The notes under the pieces are model-generated. The model ran no database searches. It had not been told where the DNA came from and saw only the letters and a program-made list of their open reading frames with translations. 24,106 nt of DNA from Candidatus Gottesmanbacteria bacterium (lineage in GTDB: Bacteria > Patescibacteriota > Microgenomatia > 2-02-FULL-39-11): positions 1 to 24,106 of the forward strand of contig JACQJU010000051.1 in NCBI GenBank assembly GCA_016204905.1, written 5' to 3'. The position numbers and the translations under genes are program-made. This document shows positions 1,019 through 19,081 of this stretch, piece by piece (the stretch's first letter is position 1; every line of letters begins with the position of its first letter).

Positions 1019-1175
1019 GATGGTGGACAGACTGGGCCACGACTGACTCGTCTAGAGTCACTCTCAACCCAGCTGTCCATTATCTTTGAGTACACCTTAA
1101 AGGTGTACTAGACCTGCCCGCAAAGCTCTCGCTTGCGAGGCAGGCGGGTAGGACACCTGCCTGCCGGCAGGCAAG
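1019..1175. repeat. Cluster of four consecutive hairpins/palindromes between convergent genes
   Basis: 17-bp stem 1019-1036/1068-1084 with inner hairpin 1044-1060; AGTACACCT/AGGTGTACT 1089-1109; CCTGCCCGC/GCGGGTAGG 1113-1152; TGCCTGCCGGCAGGCA 1158-1173. Confidence 0.85.
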
Positions 1176-6972: not shown

Positions 6973-7202
6973 TATGTTCTCACTCCTTTCGTATCCAGGA
7001 CCACACGCCCGTGATGATAAACTCATCACGAATGTGTGAACCAGGAGTAGAAAGAAAGTAAGTAAACCAGGACTGTAAATGTGCGATGAGAATCTTTTAA
7101 ATCCCGCAATTGAAGAAGAAAAATTCTCAACACCAACAGAAATCTTGCCTCTTATTTGGTAAAACGCTATTTGTCTCGCCTAGAATACAAGATTAATACT
7201 AT

Positions 7203-17500: not shown

Positions 17501-17560
17501 TTTTCTTCAGTATTTCACTTCATTTTGAAATTGTCAAATCGTTTTTATCAATCGTACCCC

Positions 17561-17621
17561 CAAAACCACTTCGGAAGTGGACTTAGCTTCGCACATCGGG
17601 ATTAATCCCACACTTCTTCAT
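17561..17621 (+). repeat. 61-bp direct repeat, copy 1 (empty site)
   Basis: 54/61 identical to 18331-18412 once a 20-bp insert and a 1-bp indel are removed; contains CCACTTC-G-GAAGTGG. Confidence 0.9.
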
Positions 17622-17686: not shown

Positions 17687-17737
17687 GTATTAGCTTCACA
17701 CACCGTATTAGCTTCACACACCGGGTGTGTAAAGCTA
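17687..17737. repeat. REP-like hairpin with an 18-bp tandem duplication of its left arm
   Basis: GTATTAGCTTCACACACC x2 (17687-17722); TAGCTT-C-ACACACC-G-GGTGTGT-A-AAGCTA 17709-17737. Confidence 0.85.
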
Positions 17738-18313
17738 TTTCTGTTTCAGTCTCTCAAGCAGTAAATCAAATTTTTTGTACTTTTTATCATAGGCGACATT
17801 AAAATGCCCTGCATTCTCCACTATCGTGATATTGCCACCCAGTTTTCTAGCTATTTCCTCTCCCTCAGATACCGGAGTATCATCGTTGGTAGACTGGTAT
17901 ATCTCAAAGTATCGACTAGCTTTTTTTATCTTCTCCCAATCAAATGGTTTCTCATGGAAAGAGTCTATTTTTTTTGAACCTTTGGCATACCAATGATAAA
18001 CCATCCATGGCGCGACCAGAAATGTCGCCCGGATTGATACCTTAAAACTAGGAAACAATTGAAAGAGGAACACCCCGCCTCTACTGTGACTAACAAACAT
18101 AGTATCTTCGTCTACAAATTTTCTATACTGATCAAATGTACCGAACCAATCACCCAGCACATGTCCTCCATAACTGGCATCCTGCTCTTTCGGGATAGGA
18201 AACTGAGGGACTAAAACACGATGACCCAATTTTTCCAGTTCTCCCTTCAGCCAGGGAAACCAATTTTCTTCTGGATTGCCATAGCTGCCATGGATGATAA
18301 AAATATTCGCCAT
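17735..18313 (-). CDS. Alpha/beta hydrolase, RBBP9/YdeN family; probable start ATG 18313
   Basis: IIHGSYGNPEENWFPWL, SHSRGG nucleophile elbow, STNDD, AGHFN. Confidence 0.9.
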   Translation of the reverse strand: MANIFIIHGSYGNPEENWFPWLKGELEKLGHRVLVPQFPIPKEQDASYGGHVLGDWFGTFDQYRKFVDEDTMFVSHSRGGVFLFQLFPSFKVSIRATFLVAPWMVYHWYAKGSKKIDSFHEKPFDWEKIKKASRYFEIYQSTNDDTPVSEGEEIARKLGGNITIVENAGHFNVAYDKKYKKFDLLLERLKQK

Positions 18314-18330
18314 TTTCACAGTTACTCACC

Positions 18331-18412
18331 CAAGACCACTTCGGGTGTGGACTTAGCCCTGCCTGCCGGCAGGCAGGTTCGCACATCGGGATTTACTCCA
18401 CCACTTCCTCAT
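18331..18412 (+). repeat. Direct repeat, copy 2 (filled site), carrying perfect 20-bp palindrome CCTGCCTGCCGGCAGGCAGG at 18358-18377
   Basis: Direct alignment to 17561-17621. Confidence 0.92.
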
Positions 18413-19034
18413 CTACATAACCTTCATCTGTTCCACTATCACCAACAACAGCTTCAGTATCTTCATCTTTTGCCGGAATAGTTTCTCCAGTTGCTGAAAC
18501 CTCATAAAACTTGAAATTTTCTAGAATTGCTTCATAAATAGCATCCAGTTTACCTGCGCCATCAGGATTTTCCTCCAAAAGAAAAATAATATCATCATAA
18601 AGCGTTGCCGTAACTACTTTGGGAGCTGGTGCACTAATTCTCACCTTTTTAGCTTCTTTGCCACCCCACGTCGTATCCACACTATTACCACCACTTATCT
18701 CCTTATCGCCTTTTAACCAACCATCAAGCGAAGTATAAGTAGTATCTTTGGCCCAAATTATGATATTTCCAGAAAGTCCACTTTTCGTCAGTTCCACATG
18801 CGCATAATTTTCCTCATCTTCTTCATGATTATCTATCATAAAATCTTTTGGGTATTCAAAAGTGAAACCCATCGGATCTTTCCAGGTAGTAAACTCCTCC
18901 ATCGGTTGAATAGATTGTGGACTCTGACCTATTGGTGAAGTTATAGATCTCCCTTTTATGAAAAAATATCCTCCTGCCGCGAGTCCTGCTAAAACAATTA
19001 CTATGATTATCCCTATGACAACCTTTTTATTCAT
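18393..19034 (-). CDS. Membrane-anchored PsbP-like domain protein with acidic tail; probable start ATG 19034
   Basis: MNKK plus TM; WKDPMGFTFEYPKD motif. Confidence 0.75.
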   Translation of the reverse strand: MNKKVVIGIIIVIVLAGLAAGGYFFIKGRSITSPIGQSPQSIQPMEEFTTWKDPMGFTFEYPKDFMIDNHEEDEENYAHVELTKSGLSGNIIIWAKDTTYTSLDGWLKGDKEISGGNSVDTTWGGKEAKKVRISAPAPKVVTATLYDDIIFLLEENPDGAGKLDAIYEAILENFKFYEVSATGETIPAKDEDTEAVVGDSGTDEGYVDEEVVE

Positions 19035-19081
19035 AAGTACATTATACATAAATTGTTAAATTGTTATAACAATGTAACCAT

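Follow-up and report, generated by a model that had tools for sequence, protein, structure and literature searches.

MITEs carry the terminal inverted repeats of a parent IS, have a target-site duplication and measure 70-300 bp. Rickettsia palindromic elements (RPE) are 100-150 bp long and confined to Rickettsia, where they are found in frame in protein genes and also in RNA genes. Fungal mitochondrial genomes with GC clusters contain many GIY-YIG homing endonuclease genes as well. Insertion without target duplication is established for the Y1 chemistry of IS200/IS605. Elhai and colleagues (Genome Research 18:1484, 2008) reportedly described SDR1-8, small dispersed repeats from Nostoc punctiforme and its relatives. 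In papers that refer to that study, SDRs appear as cyanobacterial elements of 21-27 nt with precise insertion (PMC4390886, PMC3116915); one notes precise insertion of an SDR into the HIP1 octamer (PMC4390886) and the other gives SDR origin as unknown (PMC3116915). REP and REPIN sequences with their RAYT genes are short GC-rich palindromes, dispersed and mostly intergenic (PMC3116915, PMC3733652, PMC3479197).

The window analyzed here is a whole contig of 24,106 bases (C136) from a draft genome of 918,523 bases (142 contigs, 39% G+C, 75% complete). The genome is probably that of a member of the Patescibacteria (candidate phyla radiation), judging from the 0.5-2.0 Mb size of the genomes compared with it and from the groundwater origin of the sample. 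It contains a 20-nt palindrome, CCTGCCTGCCGGCAGGCAGG, which we named PAL. PAL is probably one copy of a family of ultra-small insertion modules, a 20-nt form with 21-nt sisters, that are added as a unit without target duplication. The family would be a very small kind of mobile DNA, with members in phages and across many bacterial phyla, and is apparently undescribed. A full-text literature search for the 20-mer or its core returned only chance matches in zebrafish papers, and none turned up that describes repeats of this kind from bacteria of the candidate phyla radiation.

By analogy of description and behavior, the closest known class is SDR1-8. As far as SDRs are described in the papers cited above, both kinds of element are very small (21-27 nt for SDRs and 20-21 nt for PAL, with the 20-nt form one base below the SDR range) and form hairpins, both insert precisely at a fixed point of another repeat without a known enzyme, and both nest in tandem heptamers, mini-transposons and their own copies. 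Unlike the SDRs of those accounts, PAL has an identical sequence in Patescibacteria, Bacteroidota, Omnitrophota, Planctomycetota, Proteobacteria, other phyla and phage contigs, has a frame-keeping 21-nt form in genes, and recurs beside small GIY-YIG genes. There is no HIP1 enrichment in this genome, and cyanobacteria are absent among the listed PAL carriers. The earlier note described the palindrome as far smaller than known MITEs, which is true, but the precisely inserting cyanobacterial elements come close to it in size.

PAL is not a MITE, as it has only 20 nt and makes no duplication. It shares with REP/REPIN sequences a short GC-rich palindrome and a dispersed, mostly intergenic placement, but it is a perfect palindrome without a GTAG or CGTC tag, is mostly single rather than in doublets, flanks no Y1 gene seen and is letter-identical across phyla. 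We therefore reject PAL as a REP in the defined sense, because the tag and the flanking of a RAYT gene are absent. Like RPE, PAL is palindromic and inserted in frame, but it is 20-21 nt long and pan-bacterial. The mobile GC clusters of fungal mitochondria (e.g. PMC7218506) are likewise GC-rich palindromes in AT-rich genomes that come and go as units; unlike PAL, they are organellar and about 30-50 bp long, with short target duplications in some, and there is no sequence relation. What sets PAL apart is its identity across phyla, a fate that depends on the reading frame, and an enzyme candidate open to testing.

Filled and empty copies of a REP-like host repeat

The window contains two copies of one host repeat on the plus strand, one empty and one filled. 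Copy 1 (17559..17611) is the empty site, with the junction at 17587/17588 and a spanning match of E=6e-13; it reads ...GACTTAGC|TTCGCACATCGGG (17580-17600). In copy 2, the left part (18329..18357; family D3, 90% identical to copy 1) consists of a CCAC..GTGG hairpin and the spacer ACTTAGC, and the right part (18378..18401; family D4, 85%) is a half-site that repeats the 5' arm of the hairpin. PAL lies between them at 18358..18377, has no strand, and is a perfect palindrome with an 8-bp stem and a CCGG loop that folds as single-stranded DNA at -8 kcal/mol. The filled site thus reads ...GACTTAGC + CCTGCCTGCCGGCAGGCAGG + TTCGCACATCGGG (18350-18390). The flanks align at 26/29 positions on the left and 23/27 on the right. 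Copy 2 is copy 1 plus exactly 20 bases, with zero target duplication and zero loss, and the breakpoint is unambiguous because a shift by one base fails to regenerate the empty site. A clean addition at an unambiguous breakpoint had been claimed from the sequence, and both points are confirmed.

The two host copies are separated by a serine hydrolase gene (17735..18319, minus strand; PF06821, E=1.4e-12), for which an exact-protein look-up gave no match. Upstream of the filled copy is a PsbP-like gene (18393..19049, minus strand; PF18933, E=2.8e-7), and the right part of copy 2 overlaps its stop codon. Another REP-like repeat (17687..17735, plus strand; family D2) has two tandem copies of an 18-nt unit and, after them, a CACACACC..GGTGTG hairpin. 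It resembles the hairpin flanking one of the RAYT-like genes described below (on C120) and overlaps the end of the hydrolase gene.

There is a second PAL copy in the window at 1156..1175 (no strand), with one mismatch at the last stem pair. Its 16-nt core at 1158-1173 is exact and stands beside a GC-rich hairpin, as the earlier note had it. The hairpin (1114..1153, no strand) has PAL-like outer arms and a different inner hairpin, and the segment 1110-1180 folds at -24.4 kcal/mol (z = -4.0). The composite of GC hairpin and PAL (1114-1175) has a second genomic copy on C37 (~7046-7105), so composites are also copied as units. Shuffles of the window gave 0 PAL matches, against the 2 observed.

Both sites are spanned by independently assembled contigs from four public groundwater runs, with zero differences and no 20-base skip. 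This comparison used contigs rather than raw reads and all four runs are from one study; their agreement indicates that the junctions are not an artefact of a single assembly. A metagenome scan for the host repeat with a variable gap found none in its first run and, in its second, 15 chance matches without the hairpin. We found no PAL site polymorphic between strains; the four groundwater runs are identical, and divergence among congeneric genomes is too great to give clean empty sites at orthologous positions. In genus g117, orthologues have only 73-80% coding identity and spacers are not alignable. The orthologous spacer in the congeners G217 and G242 is without PAL, yet this spacer is not alignable. 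At one shared gene end in the genus PAL occurs only in G105, which lends weak support to a gain or loss.

The host repeat belongs to a second kind of repeat in this genome. The genome encodes nine matches to the Y1 transposase family, and eight are proteins of 215-233 amino acids with HUH and tyrosine motifs. The best NCBIfam match of these eight is the REP-associated tyrosine transposase (RAYT), at 47 bits and below the cut-off. The genes are at C71:3178-3861, C103:565-1263, C106:7291-7989, C106:14897-15562, C139:6619-7263, C139:9547-10227, C120:7885-8556 and C99:1575-2246. Eight RAYT-like genes in a draft below 1 Mb make an unusually rich REP/RAYT-like layer for a genome so small. A private repeat brackets each gene on either side, in inverted orientation; it is built of a CAC...GTG hairpin, then a spacer of 6-9 nt, then a half-site repeating the 5' arm of the hairpin. 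Relatives have this design too, and so do the loci L125 and L128. The window host (17559-17611, 18329-18401) matches the repeats at the C103, C120, C139 and C99 genes and has exactly the design of a RAYT flank, so we assign it to the REP-like elements, and it fits the REP/REPIN kind well. A cognate gene for it was not found in the 75%-complete draft. Within this host PAL occupies the spacer at TTAGC|T, 7 nt to the 3' side of the hairpin foot. A second REP family, with its cognate gene on C103, carries PAL at the corresponding position (C106:18785).

PAL in the genome, in genes and across phyla

Among the 12-, 16- and 20-mers of the 918,523-base draft, PAL ranks first in frequency. The genome-wide count that the earlier note had proposed gave 21 exact copies, 32 at no more than one mismatch and about 59 members at no more than three edits. 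Besides the perfect palindrome of 20 nt, the family has two subfamilies of 21 nt, one with an additional C (11 identical copies and variants) and the other with an additional T. When joined flanks were searched against the genome by BLAST, 28 of the 59 members gave a spanning, empty-looking match elsewhere, which bears out the view that the 20 bp behave as a unit.

In addition to the window pair, there are at least nine filled/empty groups in the genome. Two filled members (C22:907 and C37:11441) are in a GC-rich 60-nt repeat with at least six empty copies, and three (C125:3625, C140:690 and C35:21) are in an AT-rich repeat that also has at least six. Other pairs are C139:2880 with the empty C138:14993, C103:4110 with the empty C70:2997, and C106:18785 with empty sites on C103 and C5. 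The window's own host repeat is filled at the identical point at C121:12628, with a PAL that differs by one base. Many other members are placed at unit boundaries of tandem heptamers. The window pair is thus one instance of a general behavior. The polarity in these comparisons of paralogues would be gain, judging from the majority of empty copies.

The 20-nt form is excluded from coding sequence, and the 21-nt form is tolerated in frame. Only 9 of 30 20-nt members are inside long open frames, against 81% expected from the genome (binomial p=1e-9). For the 21-nt members the number is 24 of 27 (81% expected, p=0.46), and the two forms differ in placement (Fisher p=9e-6). The 21-nt members are read through as seven added residues, in frames of up to 1245 amino acids. 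The in-frame variants include C6:12008, C86:2786, C134:7413, C52:2462 and C74:10319, and LPAGEAG, PASPAGR and LPRRQAG are among the residues added. Most simply, the modules would insert largely irrespective of coding, and the copies that break the frame would then be lost. With its seven extra codons, the 21-nt form is a source of protein variation.

Stems of at least seven perfect pairs span the insertion point at 13% of 143 sites and at 4% of control positions; for stems of at least eight pairs the values are 6% and 1%. Abutting 7-bp direct repeats occur at 6 of the 143 sites, all in heptamer arrays, and at 0.1% of controls. Hairpins and tandem repeats are therefore favored as targets and neither is required. 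The targeting of hairpins suggested in the earlier note is a real link of moderate size, and most sites have no obvious structure. We reject strict targeting of hairpin loops, as the enrichment is only 3- to 6-fold. Flank preference is weak, with an A at -1 and a T at +1 the only signal in flanks that are otherwise variable. At loci from different phyla, PAL is found within heptamer arrays, at the centers of other hairpins and in PAL itself. Examples include heptamer arrays on C76, C38, L101 and L082 and self-nesting at L018 and L042. At L105:5447 (a Verrucomicrobia bin) and at C5:2986, PAL is in the loop of the same kind of TCCGCC...GGCGGA host hairpin, and therefore some host hairpins may also be common to several phyla.

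Copy numbers are patchy and burst-like. PAL is carried at no more than one mismatch by 20 of 41 relatives (0-53 copies, with 53 in G007), and the exact 20-mer is found in 115 of 400 high-quality genomes sampled across the phylum (1-21 copies each), with genome sizes of 0.5-2.0 Mb throughout. Within one genus, the number ranges from 0 to 15. A reversed PAL used as a control had 0 matches in both sets. A scan of prokaryotes with one genome per species found the exact 20-mer in at least 120 stretches and, among the matches listed, in at least 10 phyla. Carriers among those matches are Patescibacteria (many classes), Bacteroidota (including cultured isolates), Omnitrophota, Planctomycetota, Gamma- and Deltaproteobacteria, Bdellovibrionales, Thermodesulfovibrionales, Chloroflexi, Verrucomicrobia, Elusimicrobia and Ignavibacteria, and one curated complete genome also has copies. 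Cultured carriers include Winogradskyella echinorum KCTC 22026, Flagellimonas yonaguniensis 334s03, Longitalea luteola SYSU D00799 and Agriterribacter humi YJ03. The identical 20-mer is found in 35 viral stretches, phage contigs among them. A subfamily with G to A at position 8, beside the loop, occurs in G060, G105, G217 and G242 and recurs in many other genomes. This one-base variant predominates in two unrelated families, so variants are copied as such. Identity across at least 10 phyla and phages implies either a very conserved partner enzyme or frequent horizontal spread, and either would be new.

Alternative origins of PAL

PAL may instead be a REP-type element mobilized in trans by a RAYT-like HUH/Y1 transposase that cuts single-stranded DNA beside hairpins and pastes without target duplication, with TTAGC|T as the cleavage site of the enzyme itself. 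The earlier note leaned to this mechanism, and the host part of that idea holds, as the host is a REP-like repeat of the RAYT-flanking kind in a genome with eight such genes, each with HUH and Y motifs and its own hairpin-spacer-half-site flanks. The missing target duplication fits Y1 chemistry, and the equal spacer position of PAL in two REP families (C136/C121 and C106) recalls the cleavage-site geometry of IS200/IS605 enzymes. A Y1 match is found in 19 of 25 PAL-rich genomes (at least 9 copies), against 48% overall, although these genomes are related, which keeps the comparison from being a clean one. Extending the mechanism to PAL itself is less convincing, since the other six PAL-rich genomes are 90-99% complete and have no Y1 match. 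PAL flanks no RAYT-like gene in the window's genome (G000), G007 or G029, where different hairpins do so and the nearest PAL is at least 1.2 kb away. PAL has neither the tag nor a constant flank. The 120 PAL loci listed contain two Y1-like frames, 0.8 and 1.6 kb from PAL and neither adjacent to it, and the 35 viral stretches contain none. In addition, REP/RAYT pairs are lineage-specific and PAL is letter-identical across phyla. A RAYT mechanism for PAL is possible but not favored, and we consider it doubtful.

We think it improbable that copy 1 lost PAL precisely, or that a filled composite of REP and PAL spread as a unit to give copy 2. Paralogous copies give no polarity, the near-identical filled host at C121:12628 differs in PAL by one base, and composites do recur (window 1114-1175 and C37). 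However, empty copies far outnumber filled ones in several host families, PAL has no flanking direct repeats to drive a precise slippage deletion, and it is found in unrelated hosts, heptamer arrays, genes and itself; this history would in any case concern one copy and not the nature of the element. A host motif kept by selection, whether as terminator, protein-binding site or RNA-stabilizing hairpin, could account for a stable and frequently intergenic hairpin and for its constant placement just upstream of GIY-YIG start codons. PAL has no T-run or terminator pattern and no Rfam family, by which we reject a terminator and a known RNA family. Its copies are nested in other repeats, tandem heptamers and PAL, its 21-nt forms are in frame inside genes, counts vary from 0 to 53 among relatives, and convergence cannot yield letter identity across phyla, which makes a selected motif very improbable. 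We give almost no weight to an artefact of sequencing or assembly, for example adapter sequence or a junction of chimeric origin. Palindromic linkers can find their way into assemblies and most carriers are metagenome bins, but four separate assemblies are concordant, mutated copies and propagated subfamilies exist, copies occur in cultured isolates and the curated complete genome, and the coding-frame filter is biological. The frame-dependent placement is hard to reconcile with either a regulatory motif of the host or an artefact.

An inserted module accounts for these observations better in our judgment. PAL is a discrete insertion with many filled/empty pairs, nests in itself and in heptamer arrays, and has subfamilies that spread as such. 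In the window, PAL would have entered a REP-like element at the TTAGC|T point of its spacer, and the host repeat would represent a second, older layer of selfish DNA, the hairpin repeats that flank RAYT-like Y1 transposase genes. If modules of 20-21 nt are mobile, they mark a lower size limit of mobile DNA, and even the smallest bacterial genomes (~1 Mb) hold two nested layers of selfish repeats.

Small GIY-YIG nuclease genes at tRNA genes

On first view, several PAL copies interrupt tRNA genes in the D-loop. ARAGORN places these PAL-bearing stretches in displaced 5' tRNA fragments just upstream of an intact copy. We therefore reject a tRNA intron or another functional tRNA insertion. A gene for a GIY-YIG nuclease of about 90 amino acids is often found between the fragment and the intact tRNA. 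Nine GIY-YIG-like frames are present in the 120 PAL loci listed, and six of the nine are within 150 bp of PAL. PAL is 16-40 nt before the GIY-YIG start codon, within the displaced tRNA 5' fragment, in L037, L106, L118, L166, L165 and L161 (cassettes at L037:2127, L106:3709, L166:1212, L118:6140, L165:850 and 1158, and L161:515). Among the carriers are members of the Patescibacteria and Chitinophagales, one proteobacterial bin and one viral contig. The viral cassette (L161) has the only GIY-YIG frame in the 35 viral stretches, with PAL about 20 nt before the start, in a tRNA fragment.

PAL-rich genomes without Y1 also have this arrangement. PAL is 24 nt before a GIY-YIG start codon in a tRNA-Met fragment of G105 (C2), and PAL-bearing tRNA-Leu fragments flank a GIY-YIG gene on both sides in G242 (C16, the L165 locus). 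PAL is near a GIY-YIG gene in G217 (C42) and again in G242 (C28), and in the relatives G016 (C41) and G002 (C19). The tRNA types at the cassettes are Lys, Met, Gly, Leu, Val and Ser; these vary and the position of PAL shifts by a few bases, so they look like repeated events. The recurrence of PAL just upstream of a small GIY-YIG gene provides a concrete enzyme candidate, which SDRs, as presented in the papers cited above, have lacked since 2008.

As to the enzyme, our tentative best guess is a small GIY-YIG nuclease, structure-specific and of the type found at tRNA genes; a RAYT-like Y1 transposase comes second and is less probable, and the rest is assigned to another enzyme or a host process. 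The GIY-YIG nuclease would cut at the feet of an extruded PAL hairpin and may also cut exposed hairpin or single-stranded targets, and ligation by the host would then finish a cut-and-paste or copy-in. A bolder and unlikely version of this proposal makes PAL either the footprint or the non-autonomous member of a pan-bacterial, phage-borne system, in which a GIY-YIG protein of about 90 amino acids, encoded at tRNA genes, inserts 20-nt hairpins at exposed hairpin or single-stranded sites. Under that version, no smaller mobile DNA would have a known enzyme, and the transposition chemistry would lie outside every known transposase family.

PAL and GIY-YIG genes could both simply gather in tRNA-side junk. 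Only about 5% of PAL copies (~1/20) are near a GIY-YIG gene, and in this genome none of the three such genes has a PAL within 260 bp. Among the 41 relatives, GIY-YIG gene number has no relation to the number of PAL copies (G007 has 53 PAL copies and 2 GIY-YIG matches). A near-identical PAL-bearing tRNA-Leu fragment is found at L099:5992, in a Giovannonibacteria bin, and at L165:850/1158 in G242. The G242 fragment differs from the adjacent intact tRNA-Leu. Comparison of these sequences suggests that the PAL-bearing tRNA fragment travels with the GIY-YIG cassette.
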